Shown: positions 1 to 14,072 of the stretch, one piece after another
Layout: each line of letters opens with the position of its first letter
Numbering within the stretch: the first letter of the stretch is position 1
IMG/VR virus record: IMGVR_UViG_2645727905_000010
Coordinates: 1-14,072 of that record
Origin: a virus
Taxonomy: Duplodnaviria; Heunggongvirae; Uroviricota; Caudoviricetes
Length of the DNA stretch: 14,072 nucleotides
Reading direction: 5' to 3' (one strand)
Position numbers and translations under genes: made by a program
The notes under the pieces: model-generated
What the model saw: the letters and a program-made list of their open reading frames with translations, nothing else
Told to the model about the DNA's origin: nothing
Databases searched by the model: none

Positions 1-30
1 ACACCCACTCTATTTAAATACCGTCTTTTT

Positions 31-80: not shown

Positions 81-81
81 G

Positions 82-375: not shown

Positions 376-2033
376 ACCCCATCAAACGCCGCAAGCCGCT
401 CTTTGTGGCTGTCGCTTATATCAAATGCAAATTTCTCATGTTCTGCCTGGAATGTGCCAAACGCCATCAGAGCCGCAACGCTCGGGTCTATCTTGTTGGA
501 TGATTTTTTCTTGTTCGGCTTGATATTGGCGTTCGCGTCACTCTGCATCACAACATTACTCATTGACCAGGCCAGCACCGGATCGCCACGATGCACAATC
601 ACCTTCCGGTTAACAAAAACTTCGAACGATTTCGCCGCCGGACTGAAACGAAGGTATGTTTGCGGGAACGGCTCCACCTCAAATCCTGCCCCCTGTAGCT
701 GCGTCCTCAGGTGCGTGGCGTTCCATGTATCGAAGCCCACCAGCCTGATATTGAAATTCTCTGCATCCGCCATGATGTCATCACGGATACGGTCATAATC
801 AATGCAGTCACCCGGTGTTGTGCGTATCCAGCCCGCCTTTACCCACTGGCGATAGATGGCGCGGTTTTTATTGGCGGGGTTCTGTAGCTGAAATTCAGGC
901 AGATAGTGACGGGAAACCAGCATAATCTTTTTACCGACCGGAAAGGCATAGCACACGCTGGAAATATCGCTGGTTGATGATAAGTCCAGCCCCGCGTAGC
1001 ACTCCTGCCCGTATAAATCCGCCTCCGCGAACGTTCCGGCGCACTCCGCCCATGCACCGTTACCCATCCACGGCGTAGCCCCCTGACACCAGATATTGAA
1101 TCGCTTGGTGAGCATTTCCACCCACTGCGACGGAATACCCCGCGCTTTCTGGATGGTTGAGGCCAGTTTTTCACGATCGACGGAAACATCGATATTGGGA
1201 TTCGCCTTTATCCACATCGCCGGATCGTCAACCTCGCTTTCATCATCCAGCTCGTAAATCAGCACGAACATGGATTCGTTCACCTCTTCACCATCCAGTA
1301 TCTGGCAGCAATAGTCATAGTGTTGTTTACAGGCTGAAACAACGTTGCTCCCCGATGTGGTGATGGCAAATAACAGCCCCTCCGGACGCGCCCCCATTCC
1401 CAGTTCAAGCGCGGAATAAACCCCGTTGTCAGGGTGCAGGTGATATTCATCCACAATGGCAAGACTCGGGTTTGTACCTTCAATGGTTGCCGCTTTTGCT
1501 GCCAGTGGCTTTAACAGGCTGTTGGTTTTCGGGTGTATCACCTTGTGTGCCTGAATATTTACCCGCTTTCGTAACGGTCGGGATAAAAGGCACATCTGAC
1601 GCGCATCATCAAACACGATCCGCGCCTGATCACGACTCACGGCGGCGGTGTAAATATCCTGCTGCCCGTTTTCCATAACCAGAAACCAGTTAGCCAGGAT
1701 AGCGGCGACCGTGGATTTGGCATTTTTTCGCGGCACTTCAATGAATGCGCTGGTGTATTTGCGCCGTCCGGTGGCCTTAACCTTAAAGCCCAGGATGCAC
1801 GCAAAGGCGAACTGCTGCCACGGCTCCAGCTCAATGGGGCTACCGCGCATTGCGCCTTTTACGTGCGGACACACCCTGGAAAAGGCAATAAACCGCTCCA
1901 CGACCTCCGGATCGAACGTGTAAAGGGGGTTTTCAAGGTCAGAAAAATACCGTTTAACGGCCTGTTTCAGTCGTTTACAGGCCGTAATTTTGCCGTTTTT
2001 TACGCCTTCTGCGTACTCATGCCAGGCGGTCAA
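372..2033 (-). CDS. terL: Terminase large subunit
   Basis: 553-aa translation has terminase-large character: N-terminal ATPase region and a C-terminal acidic nuclease region (IVDEYH, FDTWN). The first codon at 2033 is TTG, preceded by GAGGA 5 nt upstream. The first in-frame ATG is 61 codons in and would remove conserved N-terminal sequence. Overlaps terS 3-prime end by 17 nt. Confidence 0.92.
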   Translation of the reverse strand: MTAWHEYAEGVKNGKITACKRLKQAVKRYFSDLENPLYTFDPEVVERFIAFSRVCPHVKGAMRGSPIELEPWQQFAFACILGFKVKATGRRKYTSAFIEVPRKNAKSTVAAILANWFLVMENGQQDIYTAAVSRDQARIVFDDARQMCLLSRPLRKRVNIQAHKVIHPKTNSLLKPLAAKAATIEGTNPSLAIVDEYHLHPDNGVYSALELGMGARPEGLLFAITTSGSNVVSACKQHYDYCCQILDGEEVNESMFVLIYELDDESEVDDPAMWIKANPNIDVSVDREKLASTIQKARGIPSQWVEMLTKRFNIWCQGATPWMGNGAWAECAGTFAEADLYGQECYAGLDLSSTSDISSVCYAFPVGKKIMLVSRHYLPEFQLQNPANKNRAIYRQWVKAGWIRTTPGDCIDYDRIRDDIMADAENFNIRLVGFDTWNATHLRTQLQGAGFEVEPFPQTYLRFSPAAKSFEVFVNRKVIVHRGDPVLAWSMSNVVMQSDANANIKPNKKKSSNKIDPSVAALMAFGTFQAEHEKFAFDISDSHKERLAAFDGV

Positions 2034-2373
2034 GCTCGTCCTCTTCCTCTGTTTCCGGTGGATTTCTGCGGCGACTTACCGGGTCAAAACCCAGCAAAGA
2101 AGCCATTTTGATCATTATTCTTTCAGCGTCAGCCTTTGCGCTCAGGGCGGGGTTTCTGCTCTCGCTGCCCTGACTGTTAACAATGCTGAACCCGCGCGTG
2201 GCAAGGTCTTCGACGGCTTTGCGGTATATGGAGTAGTTAACGCAATACAGCTCCAGATTGCTCCAGTCGGCGGGGGTAAGGTCTTCCCGTCCGGAAAGCT
2301 GGCGCGATTTTTCCTTCCACTGCCTGACCGCGATTTCATCCAGGTAAGCGGGGGCTTTTGGTGGTCTTGCCAT
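2017..2373 (-). CDS. terS: Terminase small subunit (P27-like), about 118 aa
   Basis: Translation from MARPPKAPAYLDEIAVRQW resembles P27-family small terminases in size and sequence style. ATG at 2371-2373. The longer ORF to 2514 adds 47 residues with no recognisable similarity, so the start is uncertain. Confidence 0.72.
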   Translation of the reverse strand: MARPPKAPAYLDEIAVRQWKEKSRQLSGREDLTPADWSNLELYCVNYSIYRKAVEDLATRGFSIVNSQGSESRNPALSAKADAERIMIKMASLLGFDPVSRRRNPPETEEEDELDRLA

Positions 2374-2661
2374 GTTCTTTTTTCGCCCAATTATTTTCAA
2401 AAAAATTCCCGTGCACAAAAATTTGAGGAGGCGGTCGGTGTCCGGCAGGGACGGTTTCGTCCTGAAAACCACCCCCACCCCCTCTGACGGCCTCACCAGC
2501 GATTGCGAAAACATTCCATGACCTCGCGGTCACGGTCGGTTAATCGCTTCGCTGTGGTGCGTTCTGTGCGCCCTGTCCTGTTGGCTTTGTGCCCTGTCTC
2601 CTGTGTCTTCCATAAGTCACGCTGCCTTATCAGTCCACGTATCAGCCTGGTTTGCTCCTGT
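2374..2661. other. Candidate cos / packaging-initiation region between the HNH endonuclease and terS
   Basis: 288-bp gap with no convincing ORF. In HK97-like cos phages, as I recall, cos lies between the HNH gene and terS. Contains an imperfect inverted repeat (cagggacg gttt cgtcctg), GC-rich tracts and direct repeats gtgcgccctgtcctg / gtgccctgtctcctg. Confidence 0.3.
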
Positions 2662-3102
2662 TCAGTCATCATCGCCATACATCCAGTCGTTACGGTGTGC
2701 TGCCCGTTCTTCCTGCTCGCGATACATGCCCGCCTTACGGTTCGCTTTCGTGGCTGGATCTTCCCGTGTCGTCTTACGGTTGTGGCACGTCTGGCACAAT
2801 GCCTGGTGGTTCCACTCAGGCCAGAAGAGAACATCACCGCCGCCATTGATGGGGATGATGTGATCCACCACAAGAGCTGGCGTATAAATCCCCTTAGCCA
2901 GACAACGCACGCATAACGGGTTTTTGCTCAGGTACAGGGCGCGGTATTTGTCCCACTGTCGGGAATACCCGCGCGCGCGGCGGTGTCCCCGTCTGGCATC
3001 CTCTGCACGCCATACAGCCCGTCTGTGCTCTTCACACTTGCCGGACTTCACGCGCTTATTACAGCCCGGCTCAGTGCATCGCCTTAATGGTTGCCACGGC
3101 AT
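2662..3102 (-). CDS. HNH endonuclease (packaging-associated)
   Basis: 146-aa translation with N-terminal Cys pairs (CTEPGC, C..C) and the HNH motif region DHIIPINGGGD ... NHQALCQTCHNRKT. ATG at 3100-3102 overlaps the stop of the upstream connector gene by 1 nt. Confidence 0.9.
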   Translation of the reverse strand: MPWQPLRRCTEPGCNKRVKSGKCEEHRRAVWRAEDARRGHRRARGYSRQWDKYRALYLSKNPLCVRCLAKGIYTPALVVDHIIPINGGGDVLFWPEWNHQALCQTCHNRKTTREDPATKANRKAGMYREQEERAAHRNDWMYGDDD

Positions 3103-3404
3103 CAGTACACCCCCACATCACGATAAACCGACCAGAGCGCAGAAATAGCCATAGGCAGTTCAGACTGCTCCACTGGTGAAACTGCTTCCCTGTTCTCGTA
3201 CAGGAAAGCGATGTACATCAGGCAACCAACACGCATTGCCGGGGTAAATTCCAGCCCGTCTTCAAAACGTTTCCCGATATGCTTCTGGCAGGCTTCCAGC
3301 GCCGCATCGGTATACATTTTCAGAAGTTCGCCTTCACCGGATAAATCATCATCAAGTCGAAGATGTGCCCTGACTTCATCAGGTGTAATTCTGGCTTCAC
3401 TCAT
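3102..3404 (-). CDS. Head-tail connector / adaptor protein (gp6-like)
   Basis: Translation from MSEARITPDEVRAHLRLDDD...EACQKHIGKRFE matches the characteristic N-terminus of gp6-like head-tail connector proteins. ATG at 3404 with GGGAG upstream. Overlaps the portal 3-prime end by 8 nt. Confidence 0.7.
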   Translation of the reverse strand: MSEARITPDEVRAHLRLDDDLSGEGELLKMYTDAALEACQKHIGKRFEDGLEFTPAMRVGCLMYIAFLYENREAVSPVEQSELPMAISALWSVYRDVGVY

Positions 3405-4611
3405 CTTTTCTCCCTTTAATTTCCACAGTCTGTTTCCATGCCTGGCTGAACTCATCACCACCTTCACGCGGCGGCATACCCTCGCGTTCGCGAGCTTCGT
3501 TCTGATTCATGATCCCGCTCTTAATCCCTTTCTCATACGTGGCATAACGTTCGGTGGGTGTGGCGCGCAGTAAATCGGCTGAATCAAACTCAACCAGATA
3601 ACGGGTACCAGGTACGGGAGAAGTCACCAGCAAAGCGGCCTTGATTTGCTGTTCGAAGTTCGCCAGCCACGGGCGCATTGTCATGGTCAGAAATGCGCGG
3701 CTCGCCTCACTGAAATTGCTGTAGGTGCTGTTGCTGTATTCCTGAAGAAAAATCGGCGACACGTTGAACATCCTGGCGATGTCTTCAATGGAGAAGCGAC
3801 GGGAGGCCAGCCATTCCGCATCCTGGTTACTCATCCCCAGCTGCCTGTAATCCATGCCCCCTTCAAGGATTGGCGTTTTTCCGGCATTTTTCGCCCCCTT
3901 GTAGCGTTCCAGTGCGTCTAATGCCTGTTTACCTTTCACGCCGTCCAGCCATTCACCTGACGTGATAATCCCTGCCGCCATCATGCCATCTTTCATAATG
4001 CTGGCTCCGTGACGCTGTTGAGCAAGGCCAAGCCCCAGCGCCTCACGGCAAATCGTGACGGGGGAACGCCCCAGAAAGCCATTATCCGAGGCATAGCGGA
4101 GATGCAGAACTTCTTCCTGTAAATACGTGCGCACCGTTCCTGTACAGGGTTCGGTGATGGTATAGCGGTATTTGTGTGTGCCTGTGCGTTCCGGTACAAC
4201 ACACCCCGGCGCATAAGGATGAAGTGATTTTGGCTGCCCGTCCCGCCCCCACTCAATAACCGCATAGGCGTTACCGTTCAGCAGGCAGTGACGCATCATT
4301 GTGCGTTTAAACTGGTAAGGTGTCAGGCACGAATTAGGCTGCTCATTCAGCAGAATATCTACCGGGTGACTGTCCAGCCATTCCCGCGCCTCTCTGCCCT
4401 TGTCATTACGTACCAGATACAGGTAACACGGCATCGTGGCCACCGCCTCAGCGATGACAGAAACCGCGTTCATCACAGCAGGCAATGATTCAGCCGTCCC
4501 GGCAGAAACATATTCTCCGGATCCGGTATTTGGTACACCAGACAACGCCAGAAAATCATCAATGGACAGGTTACGCAGATCGCTTTTTTTACGACTAAAA
4601 GGCCACCACAT
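3397..4611 (-). CDS. Portal protein (HK97 family)
   Basis: About 400-aa translation with portal-like features and an acidic C-terminus. Start chosen at ATG 4611 (MWWPF...), directly after the protease stop. The ORF could extend to 4701. Confidence 0.88.
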   Translation of the reverse strand: MWWPFSRKKSDLRNLSIDDFLALSGVPNTGSGEYVSAGTAESLPAVMNAVSVIAEAVATMPCYLYLVRNDKGREAREWLDSHPVDILLNEQPNSCLTPYQFKRTMMRHCLLNGNAYAVIEWGRDGQPKSLHPYAPGCVVPERTGTHKYRYTITEPCTGTVRTYLQEEVLHLRYASDNGFLGRSPVTICREALGLGLAQQRHGASIMKDGMMAAGIITSGEWLDGVKGKQALDALERYKGAKNAGKTPILEGGMDYRQLGMSNQDAEWLASRRFSIEDIARMFNVSPIFLQEYSNSTYSNFSEASRAFLTMTMRPWLANFEQQIKAALLVTSPVPGTRYLVEFDSADLLRATPTERYATYEKGIKSGIMNQNEAREREGMPPREGGDEFSQAWKQTVEIKGRKDE

Positions 4612-4612
4612 A

Positions 4613-5173
4613 TCACAACCCCGCCAGTTCAGCCCAGCGATGACGATTATTTCCTGCCGGGCGTAATTCAGGGTACTGTGCAAACAACGAACGGTGGGCA
4701 ATCTCCACGCCGGATTCGGGATAAGCAGGCATCGATGTTATCGTGATTTCACGGAGTTCTGCGGCGGTTACAGTACGCAGATACGGTTTTTGCGCGATAT
4801 TCCACTCCTCGCATAATGCGCGAAAGCCAAAGCTCATTCCTGTAATATCGCCACGTTCCACCAGCGTAAGCACATCTTTTCCAAGCTGGGTATTTGGCGG
4901 TGTCAGTTCAAAACGTAGCCCGGTGTTATCCTCAGTCAGTACCAGTGAGCCGGATTTGGTACGCCCCAGCAGTCGGGTATAGTCATGCTCATACAGACAG
5001 CGCACATCATTACCCGTCGCCAGATAGTCAGCAAAAGCCCCCGGCGTGAACTGTTCGCGAAACTCGTCCCAGATAATTTCTGAAAGGCTGTTCCAGCGAA
5101 CGGCATAACCCACCAGTTTTTTATCGCTGGCGGTCAGTTCAGATGTACGGATTTCAAAATCGGTGTTTTTCAT
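4613..5173 (-). CDS. Prohead maturation protease (HK97 family)
   Basis: Translation from MKNTDFEIR contains the HK97-protease-like core (LYEHD...LGR...L.LTED..GLRFE...G.DVLTLVERGDITGMSFGF). ATG at 5173 with GGAG upstream. Confidence 0.88.
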   Translation of the reverse strand: MKNTDFEIRTSELTASDKKLVGYAVRWNSLSEIIWDEFREQFTPGAFADYLATGNDVRCLYEHDYTRLLGRTKSGSLVLTEDNTGLRFELTPPNTQLGKDVLTLVERGDITGMSFGFRALCEEWNIAQKPYLRTVTAAELREITITSMPAYPESGVEIAHRSLFAQYPELRPAGNNRHRWAELAGL

Positions 5174-5191
5174 CGGTGTACTCCATAAAGC

Positions 5192-5214
5192 TGAAAAAGG
5201 AGGCCGAAGCCCCC
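5192..5214 (-). terminator. Putative intrinsic terminator/attenuator between capsid and protease genes (minus strand)
   Basis: Minus-strand RNA would read GGGGGC-UUCG-GCCUCC (6-bp stem including one G-U pair, UUCG tetraloop) followed by UUUUUCAGCUUUAU. Sits 8 nt downstream of the capsid stop. Confidence 0.5.
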
Positions 5215-5222
5215 TTTGCTCA

Positions 5223-6368
5223 TTACTTGCCAGCCTGAATTTCCAGAATCTTGATGGCGTTCGAATCCACCACACCACCGCCCAGATATTTCTGGGTATA
5301 GATGTTAATGAATCCAGGCTCGCTGAAATCCGGACGGGTACGCGTACCGGTTTTATGGTCAACGATGAAATAACCGCGCTTAAAGTCACCGACTGCAATC
5401 ACACCGTCCGGCATAAATTCCAGATATTCAACCGGAAGCCCCAGCAGAGAATCAGGATCACCAGCCTGTAAACGATCGCGCCAGATGTAATCACCAGTGG
5501 CATTTTTCAGTTTTTGTGCGGAGGCGGCTGTATTTGAGTTCATCACCCATACAGCTTTTTTGCGGTACTTATTGCGCAGCGTAAATTTCAGGTCAATCAG
5601 CATATCGGCGCTGAGACTGCCAGTCACTTTTTTCGTCTGGAGCGTACCGAAAGGACGGGTTTTGTCATTATCCGTAGTGCGCGGGAAAGTCAGGAAACCT
5701 TTGGCTTTTTTCTCGCCATCACCGGAAACCAGATCCGTTTCTTCGGTATCAACGAAAGTGTCGCCAATTTCAGAAGATAACCAGCCCATAATATCGACTT
5801 CGGAAAAATCGATAATTTCCTGAGTGGTTTTCGGGTAAGCGTAGATCGGATACAGGCGGATACTGACTTCATTCAGTTTTGGGGTTGCCGTCTGGTTACG
5901 TGCCGCACCTTCTTCGCCGTGTCCCACGACCGCGCCCCCGGCAGAAACCAGTTGCTTAAATTCATTACTGTGAATGGTTTTAACAGTACAGATTTTACGC
6001 ATCACCGACTCATCAGAAAGCTGACGCATAATTTCTCTGTTCAGTTCCGGGATAACCGTATAACCACCATCAGCCGGAACACTGCCGGACAGGTTGCGGG
6101 TTTCCCCGGTCAGAATGTAAGAGCGTAGCTCATTTTTGGTGATTTTATCTTCGACGGGAACACCAGGCTGGTTACGTTCTTCATCAGCCACAGACTCGAG
6201 GCGGGAAATTTCTGTGTCGAGGGAATCGGCTTTTGCACGCAGTTCATCAAACTGTTTGCCTTCGTCATCGTTCAGGCTGCGGTTTTCACTGTCGGCTTTT
6301 TCCAGCAGGGATCGCATCTGGTTTTTCAGGACGGTTTTTTGCTGGCGGAGTTCGATTAATTTCTTCAT
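5223..6368 (-). CDS. Major capsid protein (HK97 fold) with N-terminal scaffold-like coiled-coil domain
   Basis: 381-aa translation with charged, heptad-like N-terminal region of about 100 aa and a C-terminal region typical of HK97-family capsid proteins. ATG at 6368. Confidence 0.9.
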   Translation of the reverse strand: MKKLIELRQQKTVLKNQMRSLLEKADSENRSLNDDEGKQFDELRAKADSLDTEISRLESVADEERNQPGVPVEDKITKNELRSYILTGETRNLSGSVPADGGYTVIPELNREIMRQLSDESVMRKICTVKTIHSNEFKQLVSAGGAVVGHGEEGAARNQTATPKLNEVSIRLYPIYAYPKTTQEIIDFSEVDIMGWLSSEIGDTFVDTEETDLVSGDGEKKAKGFLTFPRTTDNDKTRPFGTLQTKKVTGSLSADMLIDLKFTLRNKYRKKAVWVMNSNTAASAQKLKNATGDYIWRDRLQAGDPDSLLGLPVEYLEFMPDGVIAVGDFKRGYFIVDHKTGTRTRPDFSEPGFINIYTQKYLGGGVVDSNAIKILEIQAGK

Positions 6369-6438
6369 GAAGGTTTTCTCGCATTGGTTAAGATTCAGGA
6401 CGTGAAACCAACACGGGGGGAGCGCCGCCCGACACTCT

Positions 6439-6513
6439 CGGCATCTCGCAGATCAACCCGGCATCGCGCAGGGGGTCAGGCGGCATTGTGGCGGCTCACG
6501 TCTGAGTGCCACA
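6439..6513. promoter_or_regulatory. Candidate regulatory sites upstream of the capsid operon: direct repeats CGGCATC(N)CGCAG at 6439 and 6459, partial third at 6481, plus dyad TGTGGC-N15-GCCACA (6487-6513)
   Basis: Seen directly in sequence. Located 70-145 bp upstream of the capsid ATG (6368) on the transcribed side. Confidence 0.3.
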
Positions 6514-6562
6514 CGCCAACATATACATAAAAATCAGTATGTAAACATCAACCAGAATCACC

Positions 6563-6590
6563 GAACAACCTGGAACAACCACGAACAAAT
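6563..6590. repeat. Three 10-bp-phased copies of GAACAAC(C) (starts 6563, 6573, 6583); reverse complement GTTGTTC matches the repeat unit of the int-alpA array
   Basis: ccGAACAACC tgGAACAACC acGAACAAat read directly. Lies between the replication-operon terminator and the capsid gene. Confidence 0.6.
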
Positions 6591-6611
6591 AATTTACAAA
6601 ACCTGAAAAAA

Positions 6612-6632
6612 GGCCCGGAAAAAATCCGGGCC
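6612..6632 (-). terminator. Strong intrinsic terminator ending the replication/ssb/FinO operon (bidirectional hairpin)
   Basis: GGCCCGG-aaaaaat-CCGGGCC perfect 7-bp stem flanked by A-run on plus (T-run for minus-strand RNA) and T-rich tract on the other side. Follows the stop of ORF 6642..6890 within 10 nt. Confidence 0.75.
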
Positions 6633-6641
6633 TTTATCGCT

Positions 6642-6890
6642 TTATTGTTTCACTGGCTCCCGCATTCTGCGTCTTATTTTCCACAAATATTCGATCATCG
6701 CTTCCACCTGCTCACGGTTGGTTGCGAAAATTTCCCCGGTCAGTGAGCTACGCAGAAAATCATGATGATCCACAAAAAATAACGCATCGGAAGAAAGCAA
6801 CCGACGATATTTTTTTGCTGTCGTGGTTTCCAGATCATCAAAACCATGAAGCTTTTTATGTTGCTGAACTTCTTCAAATGTCACTGGCAT
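6642..6890 (-). CDS. Hypothetical 82-aa protein
   Basis: ORF with ATG at 6890 overlapping the FinO-like gene stop by 10 nt (operon context). No family recognised. Confidence 0.5.
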   Translation of the reverse strand: MPVTFEEVQQHKKLHGFDDLETTTAKKYRRLLSSDALFFVDHHDFLRSSLTGEIFATNREQVEAMIEYLWKIRRRMREPVKQ

Positions 6891-7411
6891 GTATCCCCCT
6901 TTGCTGCCCGGCGCTGGCGCTTGTGCTTCTCATTCAGCACCATCAGCCGTGTTTCTGCCTCCTGCTGTTCCTGTGGTGTCACTTCCCCACATGGCTGGCC
7001 TTTCAGATCGTAACGTGCGCCACCAGCTATCAGGGCGCGGTAATAGCGCGGAGACTGCGCATAGGATGCCAGCGTCGCACGTAATACCCCCGGCCCGAAT
7101 GCCAGCCCCCTGACGGCGATATCCTGCATCAGGTCGTCGAATATCCCCACCTTAAGCGGCTTCGGTGCTTTATGGCTGAATAAGTCAGGCCACATCTCAG
7201 TGAGGCGGTTAACGCGTCGGCGGTTTTTGCGCTGCCTTTTGGTCATATGCTGCCACGGTGTCGCCCCTGTGGGCTTCTGCTGTGCGTTCTGATTGCCGGG
7301 TATCACTTTATGCGCCGATGTGGTTTTATCCTGCTCTTGCGCCGCCTGCGTCGTTTTCTGCGGCGTGCCGTAAATGCCTTTCGGCTTCCGGTTAATGGTC
7401 AGCGTTGTCAT
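6881..7411 (-). CDS. ProQ/FinO-domain RNA-binding protein
   Basis: Core region WPDLFSHKAPKPLKVGIFDDLMQDIAVRGLAFGPGVLRATLASYAQSPRYYRALIAGGARYDLKGQPCGEVTPQEQQEAE resembles the ProQ/FinO fold signature (CF..PLKIGI.DL...S...LR.AL..Y..S.RY......G..R.DL.G...G.V). Basic Lys/Arg tail. Confidence 0.8.
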   Translation of the reverse strand: MTTLTINRKPKGIYGTPQKTTQAAQEQDKTTSAHKVIPGNQNAQQKPTGATPWQHMTKRQRKNRRRVNRLTEMWPDLFSHKAPKPLKVGIFDDLMQDIAVRGLAFGPGVLRATLASYAQSPRYYRALIAGGARYDLKGQPCGEVTPQEQQEAETRLMVLNEKHKRQRRAAKGDTCQ

Positions 7412-7447
7412 GCCTTCCCCTGTAATTACTCTGTTCGCTGTTGTGAA

Positions 7448-7873
7448 TTAAAACGGTATGTTATCCCCGTACGGGTCATCGTGCTGGCTTGTCTGTTGTT
7501 TTGCCCTGTTCAGTGCGTCAGTGGCCTGGCCCTGTTGACCTTTTTTGCCGCCCGGTCGCGCCGTTCGCGCACTGATTACGCTGTCTGCAATAACCTGCCA
7601 GCCCTGCCGCGTTTCCCCGTTCTGGCCTGTCCACTGGCTCACCTGCATGTTACCCGCCACGCTCACCAGTTCGCCTTTGTGGTGTTTTGCCAGTGCGTCG
7701 GCCTGTCTGCCAAACGCCAGGACAGATAACCACATCGTCGCCGTTCCGTCATCTGCCTGGCTGCACGGCAGGGGAACCGCCATACTCGCCATCGCCATTT
7801 GTGTCCCTTTGCTGGTGGTCTTTAACTGCGGGTCAGCCACCAGCCGCCCGTAAGCCGCTATCTGTGCTGTCAT
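7448..7873 (-). CDS. ssb: Single-stranded DNA-binding protein
   Basis: 141-aa translation with OB-fold-like core aligning by eye to E. coli SSB (IAAYGRLVADPQL / WLSVLAFGRQADALAKH / QGWQVIADSV), Gly/Gln-rich linker and C-terminal acidic tip ...DDPYGDNIPF (SSB tip motif D-I-P-F). Confidence 0.85.
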   Translation of the reverse strand: MTAQIAAYGRLVADPQLKTTSKGTQMAMASMAVPLPCSQADDGTATMWLSVLAFGRQADALAKHHKGELVSVAGNMQVSQWTGQNGETRQGWQVIADSVISARTARPGGKKGQQGQATDALNRAKQQTSQHDDPYGDNIPF

Positions 7874-7936
7874 GCTGTCTGTTCTCCGGTTTTAACGTTG
7901 ATTGTTACGCTTGTTTACACCCTTACGGTGAAATTC

Positions 7937-8060
7937 TGCGGGTTATAATCGCACTTTTGCGGGTTATAACTGCCGTTTTGCGGGTTACGTGCGGGTTATT
8001 GATTTCCTTTTTATTCATACAGTTAATGCACTTACACACAGGATAACCCGCATAACCCGC
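7937..8060. repeat. Putative origin of replication: four direct iterons TGCGGGTTA(T/C) at 7937, 7958, 7979, 7990, an AT-rich spacer, then two inverted copies ATAACCCGC at 8043 and 8052
   Basis: Seen directly. Located immediately 3-prime of the replication gene (stop at 8084), the usual ori position in PICI/P4-type elements. Confidence 0.75.
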
Positions 8061-8083
8061 AACTTTTTACATCACACAGGGGG

Positions 8084-10204
8084 TTAATCTTCTGCCTCAG
8101 GCTGGAACATCAGCACGTAAAAAACATGCTGCTTCCCCCCAATTTTGCTGAGCGCCTTTTTCTTGTAACGGCGGTCGTTCCCCTTTTCCAGCATCCCCGC
8201 CGCATCAAGCGCTCTTGCAAAATGCGACGGGTTAAATCCCTGTGCGATCTCACCTTCAAACACATGCGGGAACGTGTAAAAACGGAACTCGTCATCTTCG
8301 TTTCTGATACTCCCCTTTCTGTATCCGGCAAGCTCTTTAATCGGTAAATCACGCTCGTCGGTGTTGGGCCACGGAAGGTATCTGCTGAATCCGAACGACG
8401 CTAAAAAAGCCTCTGCCTGTTCAACCATCTGTTTAAACTCCCTGTTACCCGTGCCGAATTCCTTCACCCAGGCATAAAAATTATGCTGTATGGCATCGCG
8501 GCATTCCTGCTCATCCCAGCCAGTAACATGACCGGAAAGCACAAGCGCGGCCTCCAGTATGGCAAAACGCTCACCCACGCGGTGGACCTGCTCGCCGTAG
8601 CTCTCCGGTATCAGGTTGCGCCACCGTTCACGGCATGCCCTTACCGTGTCCTTTGCTTCCTGCTGGTGGTTTGCCAGCCATTTAACCCATTCACGACCCG
8701 CCGCCCCGTGATTTTCTGTCCAGGCATCCTTTAACGCGTCTGCGTGTGCCTTTCCGGTGCTGTATTCGTGAAATTGTGTGGCTTTTTCCATTGGCACGTT
8801 AAGCAGGCGGACAAGCTGCCCCGCCTTGACTTTTATCCCTTCCGTTTTGAGGAATGTTTCAACGTCCATTTCTCCGGTACTGATTGCCACCGTGCGCCAG
8901 TGTTTGATCTCCCTGTTGCCGCCGTCCTTTGCCCCCTGTAATTTCCCGGAACCGTTAAACAGCGTATAGGCTGACGTGGACACCTCCCGCGCGTTTCCGG
9001 CCTGACCTATTTCATCCAGGGGTAACAGCCCGTCATTATGTGCTTCGGCCTCGTTGGCGATACCTAACGCCGTGCCGTACCAGGTCAGCCGTTGTGCGTC
9101 CGGCTCTCCCCATAAACTGGATGCGATGTTCTGTGTGGTGGTTTTCCCTGCCGATGACTGTTCGAAAAGATGTACCCCGAAGCCGTCAGCCCCCACCAGC
9201 CCGATTAATGGTGCGGATAACGATACCGCCACACCCAGCATCATGGACGGATTACCACCAGCCAGCCGCGCCACGGTATCGCGCCAACCCTCCGCCGTTC
9301 CTGCCACGGAATAGCCATTAACAGCAGCCGTTTTTCCGGTAAACAGGACTGGCTTTTCGCAATCACCAATGACCGAACCGTCCGGCATGATGTACGCGCC
9401 AAAATGCCAGCCCGTTGTTGTGCTTAACTGCCATTCCTCATGGCTTCCGCTTAACTGCATCCAGTCAGCCAGGATAGCCCTGTATTTGCCGTTAGTTGTT
9501 ACGTTCAGTCCGTGGTCTTTCAGCAGCCGCCAGCCGTCACGGTCGCCAATGCCACCGCACGGAACCGCCATTGTTATGACTTCATGGTTTGCTAATTTTT
9601 TCCAGCGCATCACGCGGTAATGCTCTTTACCGATTGTCCCCGTTCCCAGTAGTTCAAGCGGGGAACATAACCACGTCTCAGGCCGGATAATTTCGCCTGA
9701 CTGCTTATCCACTTTGGGCGTTACCCAGAAAACACCATCGGCGCGGCTTTCAACGCGTGGCTTTAATTCATCATCACCCTGGCTTTCTGTGATTTTTTTC
9801 TTTAAGGGCAACACCAGACTTTCCCCGCGCTCGTATTCGTCTTTCAGCCGGGCAAGCTGTGGTGTCCAGTCCTCCAGTAAATCGCCGTTCTCGTCACAAA
9901 AACAGGCTTCTTTAACACCAGCCACTGCCAGCAGGGTTTCAATCTGTAGCGCCAGTTTGTCATCCAGTTTTCCGGCACGTCTGACGATGGCGCGTGACCG
10001 ACCCTCATCCACAATACGCAGGTTTTCCAGATTACCCAGGTCACGCCGTCCGAGATAAACAGGTGGTATTTTGTCGCCGCGCTTTCTGGCTTCTCCGCCC
10101 TGCATGTAATGCTCTGCGTGGCTGTATGCGTCATCCCCCGCAAAAATCACTGCATCCTCGCCTTTATCTTTCGGTAACAGTTTTACGTTCGGTGCCAGTT
10201 TCAT
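8084..10204 (-). CDS. Replication initiator: primase/helicase-like protein with P-loop NTPase domain
   Basis: 706-aa ORF. Central P-loop-like motif FEQSSAGKTTTQ and size/architecture typical of satellite and genomic-island primase-helicase (pri-rep) proteins. ATG at 10204 overlaps the upstream gene stop (ATGA). Confidence 0.8.
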   Translation of the reverse strand: MKLAPNVKLLPKDKGEDAVIFAGDDAYSHAEHYMQGGEARKRGDKIPPVYLGRRDLGNLENLRIVDEGRSRAIVRRAGKLDDKLALQIETLLAVAGVKEACFCDENGDLLEDWTPQLARLKDEYERGESLVLPLKKKITESQGDDELKPRVESRADGVFWVTPKVDKQSGEIIRPETWLCSPLELLGTGTIGKEHYRVMRWKKLANHEVITMAVPCGGIGDRDGWRLLKDHGLNVTTNGKYRAILADWMQLSGSHEEWQLSTTTGWHFGAYIMPDGSVIGDCEKPVLFTGKTAAVNGYSVAGTAEGWRDTVARLAGGNPSMMLGVAVSLSAPLIGLVGADGFGVHLFEQSSAGKTTTQNIASSLWGEPDAQRLTWYGTALGIANEAEAHNDGLLPLDEIGQAGNAREVSTSAYTLFNGSGKLQGAKDGGNREIKHWRTVAISTGEMDVETFLKTEGIKVKAGQLVRLLNVPMEKATQFHEYSTGKAHADALKDAWTENHGAAGREWVKWLANHQQEAKDTVRACRERWRNLIPESYGEQVHRVGERFAILEAALVLSGHVTGWDEQECRDAIQHNFYAWVKEFGTGNREFKQMVEQAEAFLASFGFSRYLPWPNTDERDLPIKELAGYRKGSIRNEDDEFRFYTFPHVFEGEIAQGFNPSHFARALDAAGMLEKGNDRRYKKKALSKIGGKQHVFYVLMFQPEAED

Positions 10205-10515
10205 TTTGCCTTTCCCCGTTCACGAATAATTTCACGTACTGCCTTAATGCGTTCCATTCCTGTAACGCGCATGATTCTGTCAATGTCGCTTAAGTTCGCT
10301 GGTGGTGCTTTGCTTACCAGGGTGAACTCCCTTTCAAAGCGCATATGCGACGACACGCAGGGATGCGCATAACCTTCGCGGATATAGGTCACGCGAAAAT
10401 CATCGACGGTTTTAATCGTTATCGTGCTGCCGTATTTATCCCGGAAAATATCGCCGGGGCGGATTTCAGGCCGAGCGGGGCCGCTGGCAGTAAAGCCAGA
10501 ATTTTTCTTTTTCAT
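10201..10515 (-). CDS. Hypothetical 104-aa protein
   Basis: ORF with ATG at 10515 and GGAG upstream. Stop overlaps the replication gene start, consistent with translational coupling. No family recognised. Confidence 0.55.
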   Translation of the reverse strand: MKKKNSGFTASGPARPEIRPGDIFRDKYGSTITIKTVDDFRVTYIREGYAHPCVSSHMRFEREFTLVSKAPPANLSDIDRIMRVTGMERIKAVREIIRERGKAK

Positions 10516-10520
10516 GTTTT

Positions 10521-10739
10521 TTACTCCAGAGGCAGCTTTTTAGCGGCGAGCTCAATATCAGATGTCAGAGAAACCTGTGTATTTGCCAGGTCTAACAACA
10601 AAGAAATAAGAATTTCTTCTCTGCTATCGGATTTATCGGTGCTAAGGCTGTTCATCCACATATTGACGACTTCCCTGATTTTTTTCGCAGAGTGCAGGGC
10701 TTCAAATGCCAGGTCTTCAATATCATGTTTATTTCGCAT
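10521..10739 (-). CDS. Hypothetical 72-aa protein, predicted helical
   Basis: Start chosen at ATG 10739 (MRNKHDIEDL...) with G-rich SD-like tract upstream. The longer form to 10805 would overlap the upstream gene by 77 nt. Confidence 0.45.
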   Translation of the reverse strand: MRNKHDIEDLAFEALHSAKKIREVVNMWMNSLSTDKSDSREEILISLLLDLANTQVSLTSDIELAAKKLPLE

Positions 10740-10941
10740 AATCGCCCCCGCGTAGCTGGTCTGCACTAACACCCGATTTAGTGAGCATTTCAGAAAATCC
10801 CGCAAGAGTGCTGATAAATTCGTTTTCCATTAAACGGCACTGACATTTAACCCGGCCTTTTTCCAGATACACCAGTACGCGCCCCGTATAATCTGACGGC
10901 ACATTCAGCACTACAGGTAAGTGCGATTCATGATTATGCAT
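10729..10941 (-). CDS. Hypothetical 70-aa protein, paralog of the adjacent upstream gene
   Basis: Shares pattern TG..LV....KGRV.C...L with ORF 10934..11143. ATG at 10941 overlaps that ORF's stop by 8 nt. Confidence 0.55.
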   Translation of the reverse strand: MHNHESHLPVVLNVPSDYTGRVLVYLEKGRVKCQCRLMENEFISTLAGFSEMLTKSGVSADQLRGGDYAK

Positions 10942-11143
10942 GTCTCACCCCCTGAATATTCGCATTAATCATTCCGGCACGTTCTGCGAGTTCCTGTAAT
11001 GATTCCCTTGTTGCGACAATGGCTTCATCTGGCAGGTGGTAATTACACACCACGCGACCTTTATCCACATTGACCAGTAGCTGCCCGGTAAATTTCTCAC
11101 GAAACTGAACGCGGTTAAGGTCGGTAAGTGACAGGTTAATCAT
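10934..11143 (-). CDS. Hypothetical 69-aa protein, paralog of 10729..10941
   Basis: ATG at 11143 preceded by AGGGGGA. Conserved block FTGQLLVNVDKGRVVCNYHL aligns to YTGRVLVYLEKGRVKCQCRL of the neighbour. Confidence 0.55.
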   Translation of the reverse strand: MINLSLTDLNRVQFREKFTGQLLVNVDKGRVVCNYHLPDEAIVATRESLQELAERAGMINANIQGVRHA

Positions 11144-11339
11144 GGTGTTCCCCCTGGCGAATACGGGCAGCGAATACCATCACGCAGCCATCAGGAGATT
11201 GCTGACGCGCTTCCTGTTCGCTGGTGGCCTCAATGGTAATCACGCGCGGTTGTGCCGTGCTCAGGGCGATAAAACGCCAGATGTATTTATTCAGGTTGTA
11301 CGAGTCCCGCCCTTGCGGGTGTCTGGTATAATTTCTCAT
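11136..11339 (-). CDS. Hypothetical 67-aa protein, first gene of the leftward operon
   Basis: ATG at 11339 with GAGG 5 nt upstream. This is the plausible 3-prime part of a 370-aa track ORF whose remainder has non-protein-like composition and crosses the plus-strand genes. Confidence 0.45.
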   Translation of the reverse strand: MRNYTRHPQGRDSYNLNKYIWRFIALSTAQPRVITIEATSEQEARQQSPDGCVMVFAARIRQGEHHD

Positions 11340-11415
11340 AGCTGCCTCGATACGCTTTCTATCGTTGGTGGTTAGACGCCCTGCATGTGTGCCACCACTG
11401 CGGGGCGTTGTTGTT

Positions 11416-11511
11416 TGGTGCATCGCACCATTCGGTTTTAACCTATCAATAAGTGAATCGCACTTCAAGCCTTTCTCTGAAATTTTTTTTGTGTATACTG
11501 AATCGCACCAA
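11416..11511. promoter_or_regulatory. Divergent promoter/operator region: perfect palindrome TGGTGC-ATC-GCACCA (11416-11430) plus two further ATCGCAC-containing sites (11456-11467, 11500-11512), the last abutting a TATACT -10-like element (11494-11499)
   Basis: Seen directly. Lies between the divergently oriented 67-aa gene (start 11339) and the RHH gene (start 11530). Confidence 0.5.
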
Positions 11512-11529
11512 CTTAGAGAGGATTCAGTA

Positions 11530-11709
11530 ATGGCAACAGGTTCAACAAATAATAAGTCGCAACAGTTAAATGCCAGATTCCCGCATGATGTTGTTGCAGA
11601 CTTAGAAAAAAATTTAGATGAAGGTGAAAGCAAGGCGCAATTTATAGTTACTGCCGTTAAAGGTGAGATCAAACGCCGCCAGCGCCGCAAGGCCAAAGAG
11701 CAGGAGTAA
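11530..11709 (+). CDS. Ribbon-helix-helix (Arc/CopG-like) DNA-binding protein, 59 aa
   Basis: ATG at 11530 with AGAGGA 7 nt upstream. Translation has RHH-like layout: short N-terminal strand (LNARFPHDVV) followed by two helices (ADLEKNL...; ESKAQFIVTAVKGEIKRRQ) and a basic tail. Confidence 0.6.
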   Translation: MATGSTNNKSQQLNARFPHDVVADLEKNLDEGESKAQFIVTAVKGEIKRRQRRKAKEQE

Positions 11710-11766
11710 CCATCACCAGCGCCGTGGTGTAAGGTATTACGGCGCATTGCTATGCAGGACAACACA

Positions 11767-11940
11767 ATGACCGATAAAGAATTGACCAAAACATTATCAC
11801 CGACACGGAAAAGACGGCGCAGAAAGATAGAGCATGAATCAGAAAGATTCGCGCCATGTGCTTTTGCCCTTGAGCAATTCCTTAAAGAGTACAGGGAAAA
11901 GCGCTCATTGCAGGTATGGCAACGAACTGAACCAGACTGA
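11767..11940 (+). CDS. Hypothetical 57-aa protein with Arg/Lys-rich N-terminal segment
   Basis: ATG at 11767 with AGGA 7 nt upstream; ORF track alternative ATG at 11752 lacks an SD. Followed by an intrinsic terminator. Confidence 0.4.
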   Translation: MTDKELTKTLSPTRKRRRRKIEHESERFAPCAFALEQFLKEYREKRSLQVWQRTEPD

Positions 11941-12005
11941 TTGCATTGCCCACCAGCCGCAAATGTGGCATTGTTGGTGATGCTTTTGTTTTCCCTTGTT
12001 CCCAC

Positions 12006-12042
12006 TGGCGACCCTTTTGCGGTCGCCTTTGTTTTGCTTGTT
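12006..12042 (+). terminator. Intrinsic terminator for the plus-strand two-gene cassette
   Basis: tGGCGACC-cttttgc-GGTCGCCa stem-loop (7-8 bp stem) followed by TTTGTTTTGCTTGTT. Confidence 0.7.
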
Positions 12043-12300
12043 ATCCGGCAATAGTGGCGCTTCACCACACGGTTGATATAATTCCCCTGCACTGATCCAT
12101 TTTTTTCGCAGCAGGTTAATTGTTCAGAAAGACGGTTCCTTATCGGGGCCGCTTTTTTTATGCCTGAAAATACCCGATAACATGGCTTTTTAGTTTCACC
12201 AGGACGAACGAAGCCCCGCCCCTGTTCGGGCGTATATCCAGTATTCATGGTTAGATCTCTGTGTTAGTGGATGGGTGGCGGCGGTGCGCCGCCAGCCTGA

Positions 12301-12504
12301 TTAGTGAACTGCCTCGCGGCTGTCCTTCCATGCCAGAACTTCGGATAAAGACCAGCCAACGGAACGACCGCCGAGTTTACGCCGTGATGGGAATTGTCCA
12401 GTCTTCTCCAGGCGATACCGACATGAGCGGCTCAGGCCTGTAAGTTGCTGACATTCTTTTTCACGTATAAAGCGATCAGCGCTTAACACTATTGCCTCCG
12501 TCAT
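12301..12504 (-). CDS. alpA: AlpA-family transcriptional regulator (phage/island excision-activation regulator)
   Basis: 67-aa translation ...REKECQQLTGLSRSCRYRLEKTGQFPSRRKLGGRSVGWSLSEVLAWK matches the AlpA pattern (...TGLSRSTIYRL...G.FP....LG.RSVGW...E...W). Confidence 0.85.
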   Translation of the reverse strand: MTEAIVLSADRFIREKECQQLTGLSRSCRYRLEKTGQFPSRRKLGGRSVGWSLSEVLAWKDSREAVH

Positions 12505-12695
12505 TTCTCAAAGAGTCATTTGGTGTCTTATTGTGTCGTATTGTTCCCGCTAGAGTGATGAATGGCAAATATTGGTGACGGTCGTTTTACAGATATGGGG
12601 TAATTAGAATAAAAATACTTTTAATTCATTGTGATGTAGTAGCGTAAAATTTTGCTTTTACGCCTTTTTTACATATTTTTAAGAGTGATTCGCCA

Positions 12696-12711
12696 GTGTA
12701 TAAAAAAACAG
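12696..12711. promoter_or_regulatory. LexA-box-like element GTGTATAAAAAAACAG (one mismatch to CTGT-N8-ACAG) in the int-alpA intergenic region
   Basis: Seen directly. Differs at 2 positions from the E. coli umuDC-type box CTGTATATAAAAACAG as I recall it. The mismatch is in the normally conserved CTG. Confidence 0.3.
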
Positions 12712-12770
12712 TATACATATAAAAATCAAATGGTTATGAATGAGTTTGATTTTTAATCCGCTTGTCCCAT

Positions 12771-12820
12771 TTTGTTCCTTGTTGTTCGTCGTTGTGTCTC
12801 GTTGTTCCACGTTGTGTCCG
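12771..12820. repeat. Five 10-bp-phased repeats (T/C)GTTGT(T/G)(T/C)C between the integrase stop and alpA
   Basis: tttgttcctt gttgttcgtc gttgtgtctc gttgttccac gttgtgtccg read directly at starts 12771, 12781, 12791, 12801, 12811. Confidence 0.75.
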
Positions 12821-12842
12821 TTCTGAAAAATCACGAAAAAAA

Positions 12843-14072
12843 TTATATTTCTCTGGCTATTGGCAGTGTGGTTACGTTTTCGTGAGTACCCGCCAGTATC
12901 TCTAACCGCTCTGTCCACATGTCCAGCGCATTACGTTTCGCATCGAGATAACGGGAGTGGTTATAGACTCGCTGCATCCCTGGCATCTGGTGAGCGGTGA
13001 GTTGTTCGACAATATGCGGATCCACGCCTAAATCGTTCAGCATCGTGGTAAACGTGCGCCGTATATCGTGTAGTGACCAGTGCGGATGGTTTAATTTTTT
13101 GTGCGTGAATCTGCCGTATTGCGACACGCTGGCTTCCTGTTTCAGTTCCCCGAGTAATAGTCCTGTGTGTCGGTTCTGCTCCACCAGCCGTGTGACGAAC
13201 GGTAAAATGCTTTCCGGTATTGGCCTGAATATGGCGACCTTCGTTTTGCTGTGCTCCTTCGGTACTGTCCAGAGCATTTCCTTAAAATCCCACTCCCTGA
13301 TCTCCGACAGCCTCAGTTCTCCGGTTCGGCAACCAAACACAATCAGGAGGCGGATTAGTGCGCTGTAGTAGGGCGGGAATATTTTTTTATCCAGCGCCTG
13401 TAATAATTCGCCCAGTTCTTTGTTACTAAGCACGCGTTCGCTTATGCCTGGTTTTTTACCAACGTCCACCACGTTGAGATCATCCAGAGCGTTACTGACG
13501 ACATAGCGGCGTTTACGACAGAATTTAAGCGCCTGTTTGCACGCCTGCATCATGTGACCAGACGTTACGGGGGATTTTTTGCGTATCCGGTCAAAACAGG
13601 CCAGCCAGTGACGTAATTCGCATTTATCCAGTGGCATGTTACCGATGTGCTGTATGACGTGATTATTCAGGCGACTTTTCAGGCATACATAATCGACACG
13701 GTTTTCCTTTACGTGCGTTTCCAGCCAGTAACTGATCGCATCGCCAACCGTTACGGGTTTTAACGCTTCCTGCACAGTGTAGTTCAGTTCATGACGTGGG
13801 TTTTTCCCTTCTGCCAGCCATGCACGACACTTTGCGGCTTTTTCCCTGGCTGCTTTAAGGCTCAGATCGGGATAGTTTCCCAGCTTCAGGCGTTCCGGTG
13901 TGGTATCCCTTCCCGTTCCAGCCCTGTAGGTGAAGTACCAGGTCAATTTACCTGATGTTAAATATTTCACGCTCAGATTACCGCCATCGCTATAGAACGT
14001 ATTTTTCTCCGCTGGCTTACCATAAAGTTTTCTTAACAATGTATCGCTCAGTTTGTTAAGCGCTCTGCTCAC
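12843..14072 (-). CDS. int: Tyrosine integrase (P4/CP4-57-like), truncated by the window edge at its 5-prime end
   Basis: C-terminal catalytic region with HDIRRTF (H-x-x-R), LTAHQ and RVYNHSRY (Tyr nucleophile). N-terminal region ...YSDGGNLSVKYL...GKLTWYFTYR... typical of P4-family integrases. The ORF is open to the window end and the first translated codon is GTG, so the true start lies beyond 14072. Confidence 0.93.
   Translation of the reverse strand: MSRALNKLSDTLLRKLYGKPAEKNTFYSDGGNLSVKYLTSGKLTWYFTYRAGTGRDTTPERLKLGNYPDLSLKAAREKAAKCRAWLAEGKNPRHELNYTVQEALKPVTVGDAISYWLETHVKENRVDYVCLKSRLNNHVIQHIGNMPLDKCELRHWLACFDRIRKKSPVTSGHMMQACKQALKFCRKRRYVVSNALDDLNVVDVGKKPGISERVLSNKELGELLQALDKKIFPPYYSALIRLLIVFGCRTGELRLSEIREWDFKEMLWTVPKEHSKTKVAIFRPIPESILPFVTRLVEQNRHTGLLLGELKQEASVSQYGRFTHKKLNHPHWSLHDIRRTFTTMLNDLGVDPHIVEQLTAHQMPGMQRVYNHSRYLDAKRNALDMWTERLEILAGTHENVTTLPIAREI

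Follow-up and report, generated by a model that had tools for sequence, protein, structure and literature searches.

A FinO-domain gene carried as an optional cassette by capsid-forming phage satellites of Escherichia coli, and a candidate antisense RNA in the same island

FinO-domain proteins form one of the three major classes of bacterial RNA chaperones, and work in Escherichia coli has centred on ProQ and plasmid FinO. In several described systems a FinO-domain protein encoded by a mobile element is paired with a terminator-bearing cis-antisense RNA, as in FinO/FinP-traJ, FopA/Inc-repZ and FinO/RepX (PMC9977716, PMC7491321). FopA (YafB), which works with Inc/repZ of IncI-alpha plasmids, and PcnR are mobile-element FinO-domain proteins with a family-specific N-terminal extension, and both act with a cis-antisense RNA near the replication module (PMC7491321, PMC9977716). 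Here we analyse a gene of this family on a 14,072-nucleotide stretch of viral DNA (IMG/VR record IMGVR_UViG_2645727905_000010, positions 1 to 14,072), referred to below as the window. The window is a capsid-forming phage-inducible chromosomal island (cf-PICI), a satellite of E. coli, and the gene is already known by annotation as a RefSeq 'ProQ/FINO family protein'. In the literature on PICIs and satellites it is present only as annotation (PMC13612085, PMC13230959), and our literature search found no functional study of the gene; its product adds a new, uncharacterised member to a well-known family, and the element that carries it is of a known kind. We show that the gene encodes a genuine FinO-domain protein and is carried as a presence/absence cassette, and we describe a candidate cis-antisense RNA, as-icd, that may be its partner.

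A FinO-domain protein that is neither FinO nor ProQ proper

The open reading frame (ORF) begins with the ATG at 7411 on the minus strand and its stop codon ends at 6881 (176 codons, with the stop included in the span), exactly as the initial annotation had delimited its FinO/ProQ-domain gene. The product matches the Pfam ProQ/FinO profile PF04352 with 83.5 bits (E=1.2e-23; gathering cutoff 27 bits), residues 64-168 aligning to profile positions 5-108 of 109, so that 104 of the 109 positions are spanned. The scores against the NCBIfam models for FinO (NF010317, 65.5 bits, cutoff 136) and for the ProQ equivalog (NF003434, 58.4 bits, cutoff 127) both fall well short of their cutoffs, and the protein is therefore a FinO-domain member that is neither FinO proper nor ProQ proper. 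A phmmer search of PDB sequences gave matches ranging from 1e-11 to 1e-5: the ProQ N-terminal domain (5nb9, 1e-11), FinO (1dvo, 9e-11) and NMB1681 (3mw6, 2e-9), followed by weaker matches to RocC (7rgu/7rgt, ~2e-6) and also Lpp1663. The best of these, ProQ 5nb9, is 33% identical.

While a single-sequence AlphaFold2 model was discarded because of its predicted local distance difference test (pLDDT) score of 49, the model used instead, built from a 30-sequence alignment, has a pLDDT of 86-96 over residues ~55-170. In this model we recover the FinO-domain fold, a helical bowl with a two-stranded beta-hairpin, with helices at residues 58-73, 90-101, 107-118, 121-129 and 146-172 and strands at 132-134 and 140-143. 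The best 27 PDB matches returned by Foldseek belong without exception to the FinO family (FinO, NMB1681, RocC, Lpp1663 or ProQ); FinO 1dvo, the best fold match, superposes with a root-mean-square deviation of 2.0 Å over 102 columns, and the RocC chains reach TM-scores of up to 0.84. The resemblance to FinO and ProQ, which the initial annotation had allowed might prove spurious on a profile or structure search, is thus genuine and far beyond chance. The architecture comprises a predicted disordered region (residues 1-50), a basic helix (58-73), the FinO domain up to residue ~145 and a long C-terminal helix (146-172), after which the protein stops at residue 176, so that a second domain of the kind formed by the ProQ linker and Tudor-like domain is absent. 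Despite the predicted disorder of this first region, its initial residues, MTxLTINRKPKGIY, hardly vary.

The residues expected to contact RNA are largely retained. In the crystal structure of RocC with RocR, the 3'-terminal nucleotide is held by the conserved residues Tyr87, Arg97 and Gly52 of the pocket while Arg75 helps to read the hairpin backbone, and the pocket and N-cap residues of RocC are described as conserved across the FinO-domain family (PMC9674577). We take these four residues to be equivalent to ProQ Y70, R80, G37 and R58, to which, in the alignment with 5nb9, Y123, R133, G89 and R111 of the island protein correspond. The Tyr, Arg and beta-turn Gly of the 3'-nucleotide pocket are accordingly all in place as Y123, R133 and G89, each at least 90% conserved among 30 homologues, while R111 is replaced by Cys or His in 4 of the 30. 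The small size and basic charge of the protein are also typical of FinO-domain proteins (family values: PMC9977716). One substitution weighs on the other side: the N-cap Ser of the family is Gly106 here, within an FGxG motif, although the modelled helix still begins at residue 107. Judging from sequence and predicted structure together, the protein is almost certainly an RNA-binding FinO-domain protein.

The protein shares with FinO of F-like plasmids its small size and basic character, a flexible basic N-terminal region and the long C-terminal helix, and each is encoded distally in a long operon of a mobile element; the two differ in sequence (~30% identity) and in host element, a phage satellite as opposed to a conjugative plasmid. 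The likeness to ProQ lies in the pocket equivalents and in the candidate ligands described below, which have ProQ-type terminator features, whereas the gene is island-borne and variably present and that of ProQ is core and vertically inherited. Compared with RocC of Legionella (7RGU), the fold and the equivalents of Tyr87 and Arg97 are kept, while the N-cap Ser is lost, there is no RocC-type C-terminal domain and the biology differs, RocC being concerned with competence. The comparison with FopA and PcnR is by description only.

An optional cassette at the end of the early operon

On the minus strand the window reads int (cut at the window end), alpA, a deletion scar, an Icd-like gene, three small ORFs, DUF4222, a DUF927 primase/helicase gene, an iteron origin, ssb, the FinO-domain gene, orf82 and a terminator, after which come the capsid, protease, portal, connector, HNH, TerS and TerL genes. 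This is the gene content of a cf-PICI, a family described in 10.1101/2025.02.11.637232; no tra genes are present in the window. A 99.5%-identical island sits in yifB, beside ilv, in E. coli O169:H41, and its RefSeq annotation has no tail genes between the island ends. There is no predicted terminator from DUF4222 through DUF927, the origin and ssb to the FinO-domain gene, so the term 'replication operon' used in the initial annotation is fair. Its placement of the gene between ssb and the operon terminator also stands, save that it overlooked orf82, which lies in between and makes the FinO-domain gene the penultimate one ahead of the terminator. The gap to ssb is 36 nt and contains the ribosome-binding site (RBS) GGGGAAGG. 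The function of orf82 (phrog_1957) is unassigned; in cf-PICIs it holds the position that a PerC-family gene has in classical PICIs (e.g. in the related locus L004, where the FinO-domain gene and the PerC-family gene share region 8711-9525), and we rejected its being a diverged PerC, as it has no BLASTP similarity to PerC and no Pfam match.

We sampled elements independently of the FinO-domain gene by means of an 18-mer of as-icd, retaining the 77 loci in which 6.5 kb or more of the operon is available downstream. Among them, 66 have ssb and 14 (18%) have the FinO-domain gene; in elements that lack it, ssb is followed directly by perC, orf82 or a capsid gene. In three cf-PICIs (L135, L146 and L180) the 3' end of ssb and orf82 align to the window at 80-96% identity while exactly the segment corresponding to 6901-7448 is absent, the flanks lying 4-9 nt apart. 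PICIs with the same DUF4222, replicase and ssb backbone also occur without the gene (L087-L089). Furthermore, the terminator AGCCGGAGCAAUCCGGCU-U5, which follows the FinO-domain gene in L084, recurs sequence-identical after ssb in the FinO-less L087, which led us to reject co-inheritance of the gene with the terminator downstream of it. Over the ~200 related elements that we compared, the gene is a presence/absence cassette inserted between ssb (or the origin) and an operon terminator that was already there; it does not belong to the core replication functions and is not needed for the persistence of these satellites.

This behaviour argues against an essential role in replication, since near-identical cf-PICIs persist without the gene, and it weakens the replication-control role that the initial annotation had implied. 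A function in replication or copy-number control like that of FopA/Inc or PcnR, in which the protein would assist an RNA controlling primase/helicase expression or origin priming, would suit the position of the gene directly after the origin and ssb. It would also suit the plasmid pSYM9 (L090, NZ_CP060068.1), in which a DUF927 replicase gene is followed immediately by one for a Rop-family RNA-binding protein and which also encodes a full-length FinO-like protein, 30% identical to ours; FinO-like proteins on plasmids of 11-13 kb occur among the E. coli, Citrobacter and Enterobacter matches, of which pSYM9 is the one we examined. A further point in its favour is a 63-nt block (10463-10525) over the start of DUF4222, which itself overlaps the primase gene by ATGA. 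It runs from the final codons of the ORF upstream through the RBS to about codon 17 of DUF4222, and is nearly invariant, synonymous sites included, in 48 distinct sequences with highly diverged flanks; it is found at 900 places in 738 genomes. However, the block folds no better than its shuffles (z -0.2 and -1.0), no antisense promoter is predicted there, and PICIs carrying the same backbone and the invariant block occur without the FinO-domain gene. An antisense RNA at the DUF4222 start was rejected as a specific partner on the first and last of these grounds, and no antisense RNA was found at the replicase leader here. The replicase upstream of the FinO-domain gene moreover belongs to several unrelated families. 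Given these observations, and the dispensability that sets the satellite gene apart from FopA and PcnR, we regard a replication-control function as very unlikely.

The position of the gene ahead of a strong terminator raises a different possibility, namely that the protein acts in cis, binding terminator 6611-6633 and stabilising the ssb-FinO-orf82 (or perC) mRNA against 3' exonucleases. The gene is last or penultimate before a strong terminator in nearly all contexts, at distances of 22-640 nt, and ProQ is known to protect mRNA 3' ends (PMC9977716). The terminator (dG -25.3 in a 56-nt context, z -5.3) has the GC-rich stem base with A-U pairs beneath that the rules for ProQ-type ligands call for (PMC12001967), and is thus a possible, but non-specific, ligand of a FinO-domain protein. 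Every operon, however, needs a terminator, which makes the adjacency hardly informative, and the recurrence of the L084 terminator in L087 means that the terminator type is not specific to the cassette. We therefore consider cis-protection improbable.

The FinO-domain gene is widespread. Of 5426 complete E. coli genomes, 1094 have matches to it, at 1513 places and up to 8 per genome, all of them chromosomal and none on plasmids; a match of 60-80% nucleotide identity is the best place in 757 genomes, and some of the copies are split or truncated. A protein search returned 298 clusters, mostly from Escherichia with some from Salmonella and Citrobacter. Among representatives at 50% identity, no more than 9 score below 1e-30, as compared to 2148 FinO-domain representatives overall, and the gene thus belongs to a narrow Escherichia/Salmonella/Citrobacter subfamily on chromosomal islands. 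Phage genomes hold distant relatives only (at most 40% identity), and plasmids mostly FinO itself (below 60%). We assembled 85 related loci: 80 from IMG/VR, three from E. coli genomes with annotation and two from a scan of GTDB species representatives, of which one is an unrelated metagenome-assembled contig; as the species-representative scan yielded two loci only, the cross-genus context is thin. Every PICI-type locus in this set has the gene at the 3' end of its early operon, behind the origin or ssb; in L004 it directly follows a GGGATAT iteron field analogous to the origin in the window. A PerC-family gene follows immediately in 54 of the 85 loci (with an ATGA stop-start overlap, as read in L004), orf82 and the capsid module in 19, the terminator alone in four (L082-L085) and other sequence in the rest. 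L086 (IMG/VR; 845-1876 and 6539-7668) carries IsrK, three tandem C4 copies and two divergent FinO paralogues side by side after ssb. The two relatives of the 72-77% nucleotide-identity class that we examined lie in non-PICI islands of E. coli GTEN_23 and PCN033 (L005 and L006), among inovirus-Gp2-like, zinc-ribbon, HTH and H-NS genes and with afa/dra adhesin loci nearby.

This distribution fits a possible reading in which the gene is a host- or helper-directed accessory gene (a 'moron'). The protein would then bind terminator hairpins with broad specificity, much as ProQ does, its targets being RNAs of the host or the helper phage; it would, for instance, compete with or replace ProQ on type I antitoxin small RNAs (sRNAs), 3' untranslated regions (UTRs) or phage sRNAs, and would reprogram the cell jointly with the co-translated PerC-family or orf82 protein. 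Its presence/absence behaviour, its site at the boundary of the accessory region, the multiple copies per genome, the close homologues in non-PICI islands that have no PICI RNAs and the ProQ-like pocket residues are all consistent with this, as is the adjacency to perC, PerC-family regulators being known host-directed PICI accessory genes (PMC11773190). Against it, no specific host or helper RNA can be named, and the protein lacks the linker and Tudor C-terminal domain that are important for the regulatory activity of ProQ (PMC8464044). PADLOC gave no matches either, and membership of a defence system was rejected. While a moron function thus remains a tentative proposal, decay of the gene to a functionless passenger is scarcely credible. 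The gene is dispensable in nature, and truncated or split copies exist, such as that in L006 (114 aa) and several short clusters, but intact ORFs of 165-180 aa persist in hundreds of genomes with the core and pocket residues invariant at 55-95% identity, amino-acid conservation stays at 0.7-0.99 along the whole ORF while synonymous sites vary, the RBS is good and the stop codon overlaps the start of the next gene.

A candidate antisense RNA opposite the Icd-like gene

When we scanned for hairpins with a U-tract behind them, one of -22.6 kcal/mol emerged on the plus strand at 11375-11409, in the supposed 5' part of an Icd-like ORF. That ORF (11136-12248 on the minus strand, 370 aa) we rejected as a real gene: it is a chimera made by a deletion. 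Its residues 1-16 correspond to the N-terminus of L004's AntA-like protein, similarity to the Icd-like family (phrog_6196) is confined to residues 282-369, the central part is antisense to two genuine plus-strand genes, ylcI (phrog_949) and a 57-aa ORF (phrog_21027), and RefSeq annotates a pseudogene at its counterpart in the near-identical island. The real Icd-like gene is the 67-aa version (Table 1), since the amino acids of the long frame are unrelated between variants while base pairing persists, and PGAP annotates this version, with a start equivalent to 11339, in L004 and L088.

The hairpin is the second of two stem-loops (SL1 and SL2) of a putative ~80-nt plus-strand RNA, which we call as-icd and whose transcription we infer from sequence. 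In an alignment of 42 distinct homologous segments, an extended -10 promoter element lies in a nearly invariant stretch (TGgTATAAT in the window, TGgTATGAT in most relatives), and its TAT..T is invariant across two different Icd N-termini; the complement of the AUG and of the GAGG Shine-Dalgarno (SD) sequence is retained in the same alignment. SL1 has a hypervariable 7-nt loop. SL2 has a stem of 13-15 bp with many compensatory variants, followed by a U-rich tail, and in the hairpin region it is the base pairing and not the amino acids that is conserved. RNAalifold gives -27.1 kcal/mol with 9 compensatory pairs. In the covariation test, run on 33 distinct sequences, pairing holds in 98.5% of cells and both sides change in 9 pairs; 0 of 500 shuffles reach any of five measures, and controls with slid partners are 34-51% paired. 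The plus strand folds better than the minus strand in 41 of the 42 sequences (mean -24.0 vs -17.3 kcal/mol), because recurrent or invariant G·U pairs become A·C mismatches on the other strand. The 82-nt sequence of the window forms two abutting stem-loops with dG -35.4 and z -3.6, the relatives having z of -4.0 to -5.8. As in ProQ-type ligands, the GC-rich stem of SL2 has A-U and G-U pairs beneath it.

The as-icd sequence is found at 2155 places in 1620 of the 5426 complete E. coli genomes (~30%), where it is annotated merely as part of Icd-like or 'ash' coding sequences; it has no match in Rfam 15 or in the phage collection, and RefSeq holds no annotation of it. Two features speak against its being transcribed and terminated as drawn. 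It has no -35 element, and the consensus promoter scan left the site out; the U-tail is interrupted (UUGUUGUUU). On balance, as-icd is a strongly covarying candidate for a cis-antisense RNA.

Table 1. Coordinates of the FinO-domain gene, as-icd and neighbouring features of the early operon (positions in the window)
Feature	Position	Strand	Remarks
FinO/ProQ-domain gene	6881..7411	-	176 aa, 19.9 kDa, pI 10.3
Confidently modelled FinO-domain part (residues 56-172)	6896..7246	-	includes G89, R111, Y123, R133
Candidate cis-antisense RNA as-icd	11324..11420	+	~80-nt RNA 11339-11420, two stem-loops; opposite Icd-like SD, AUG and 5' UTR
as-icd, extended -10	11324-11332	+	TGgTATAAT
as-icd, SL1	11339-11374	+	
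as-icd, SL2	11375-11409	+	
as-icd, U-rich tail	11410-11420	+	
Icd-like gene	11136..11339	-	67 aa, GAGG SD; first recognisable gene of early operon
DUF4222	10201-10515	-	replication module of the same operon
DUF927 primase/helicase	8084-10204	-	same replication module
Putative replication origin	7937..8060		between primase gene and ssb; four direct TGCGGGTTAT iterons (7937-7999; spacing 21, 21, 11), two inverted copies (8043-8060), AT-rich spacer between
ssb	7448..7873	-	PF00436; directly upstream of FinO-domain gene, co-transcribed
orf82 (phrog_1957)	6642..6890	-	82 aa; start overlaps FinO stop by 10 nt
Early-operon intrinsic terminator	6611..6633	-	AGGCCCGGAUUUUUUCCGGGCCU then U5-6

A possible partnership between the protein and as-icd

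The general suggestion of the initial annotation, that the FinO-domain protein points to an RNA-based layer of control, is reasonable, as relatives carry C4, IsrK and int-alpA RNAs and the window has as-icd; the two regions it proposed as structured partners are poor ones. The first, 12041-12300, is a deletion scar and not an RNA: it consists of the 5' stub of the deleted antA-like gene and the 3' flank of alpA, its fold is not significant (z -1.43 and -1.95) and it is conserved in just 3-29 of the 85 loci. The second, the hairpin at 6612-6632, does show the ProQ-type ligand features noted above, yet it is the ordinary operon terminator, with a counterpart at the homologous position after ssb in the FinO-less L087. 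No known RNA family, C4, IsrK, int-alpA and FinP included, turned up when the whole window was scanned against Rfam (E<=1). An antisense RNA inside the FinO coding sequence was likewise rejected, there being no marked dip at synonymous sites among 51 distinct homologues and no predicted plus-strand promoter.

Among island-encoded RNAs as-icd is the most plausible candidate ligand, ahead of both of these regions, and by analogy with the plasmid systems we tentatively propose it as the principal client of the FinO-domain protein. Made from the distal end of the operon, the protein would stabilise as-icd by shielding it from 3' exonucleases, and its basic tails would help sense-antisense pairing. 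The RNA would pair with the SD and AUG of the gene that opens this operon and encodes the Icd-like cell-division inhibitor, and the protein-stabilised RNA would strengthen translational repression of icd and possibly, by polarity, of the genes downstream. The outcome would be that the satellite is kept quiet or that Icd toxicity is limited; elements without the cassette would presumably use the RNA alone or host ProQ.

The likeness to FinP is considerable: as-icd, too, would be an RNA of ~80 nt with two stem-loops, the second of them serving as terminator, and is complementary to the RBS and start of an operon's leading gene. It differs from FinP in that SL1 and SL2 abut without a spacer, and its target is an Icd-like division inhibitor rather than TraJ. 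The association of protein and RNA cuts both ways. All 69 FinO loci that include icd have as-icd. Several observations nevertheless weigh against the partnership: only 14 of the 77 elements selected by as-icd carry the FinO-domain gene; the FinO-less PICIs L087 and L088 have as-icd; the FinO relatives of L005 and L006 are found without icd or as-icd; and the co-presence in 69 of 69 loci may reflect the shared PICI backbone only. The finding that most RNA-bearing elements lack the protein distinguishes the present case from FinO/FinP. In the F plasmid, finO is naturally inactivated while finP persists. An optional protein is, by this analogy, compatible with a partnership, because F retains finP without active finO. 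An accessory protein directed at host or helper, with PerC or orf82 as its companion, would account for the data equally well.

Control of an Icd-type division inhibitor at an operon head by an RNA has precedents in the C4 RNA of P1 (icd-ant), the CI RNA of P4 (Rfam RF01695) and IsrK. As-icd would differ in kind, being a cis-antisense candidate read from the opposite strand, whereas C4 is processed from the same strand. While absent from the window, C4 and IsrK lie just upstream of icd in some relatives (L038, L042, L043, L051, L086 and the FinO-less L089), and the presence of the FinO-domain gene shows no association with theirs (p=1). The int-alpA RNA is found in 25 FinO loci; here the comparison of FinO with int-alpA RNA gives 4/8 vs 0/54, an association that probably marks one lineage.

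Other features of the island lie outside this argument. A small plus-strand operon at 11530-12027, comprising the ylcI/ynfO-family gene (RHH-like, phrog_949) and the 57-aa ORF (phrog_21027) and ending in a terminator at 12007-12027, converges on alpA and is conserved in ~50 of the 85 loci; its 5' end may overlap the promoter region of the early operon, and the satellite may have its regulatory switch here. (T)TGTTC(C/G) repeats, recurring every ~10 nt, are clustered at 6562-6590 (minus strand), just upstream of the predicted capsid-operon promoter (6545-6518), and at 12781-12808 (plus strand), between int and alpA. There are 5 exact matches to GTTGTTCS as compared to 1.4 expected, and from sequence the clusters may be sites of a common regulator, e.g. 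AlpA. Between the same predicted promoter and the capsid start codon there is a GC-rich leader of ~140 nt (6369-6520, minus strand), which may be a regulatory leader or a packaging-related site. Finally, the int-alpA spacer contains, at 12642-12663 on the plus strand and thus opposite int and alpA, a terminator-like hairpin, GCGUAAAAUUUUGCUUUUACGC followed by CUUUUUU, where no plus-strand gene ends; in many relatives the spacer holds the Rfam int-alpA RNA (RF02996), on the int/alpA strand.

With 1-8 extra island-borne FinO-domain genes in a substantial number of complete E. coli genomes, these proteins could confound or extend the ProQ regulons of pathogenic strains. The natural FinO+/FinO- polymorphism of near-identical cf-PICIs makes the function of the gene directly testable with ready-made controls, and as-icd does the same for the hypothesis of an RNA layer. 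To judge from the literature we searched, as-icd, if expressed, would be the first case of cis-antisense control reported in Gram-negative PICIs. Cassette and RNA might even constitute a FinOP-like switch of phage satellites, in which an antisense RNA, type-specific through its hypervariable loop, would gate translation of the Icd-like protein and the early operon. We think this broader reading rather unlikely; if true, the optional FinO paralogue would set the tightness and inducibility of silencing, and PICIs would possess an RNA-based, element-specific layer of immunity, of which the FinO+ and FinO- variants would be tuning states.

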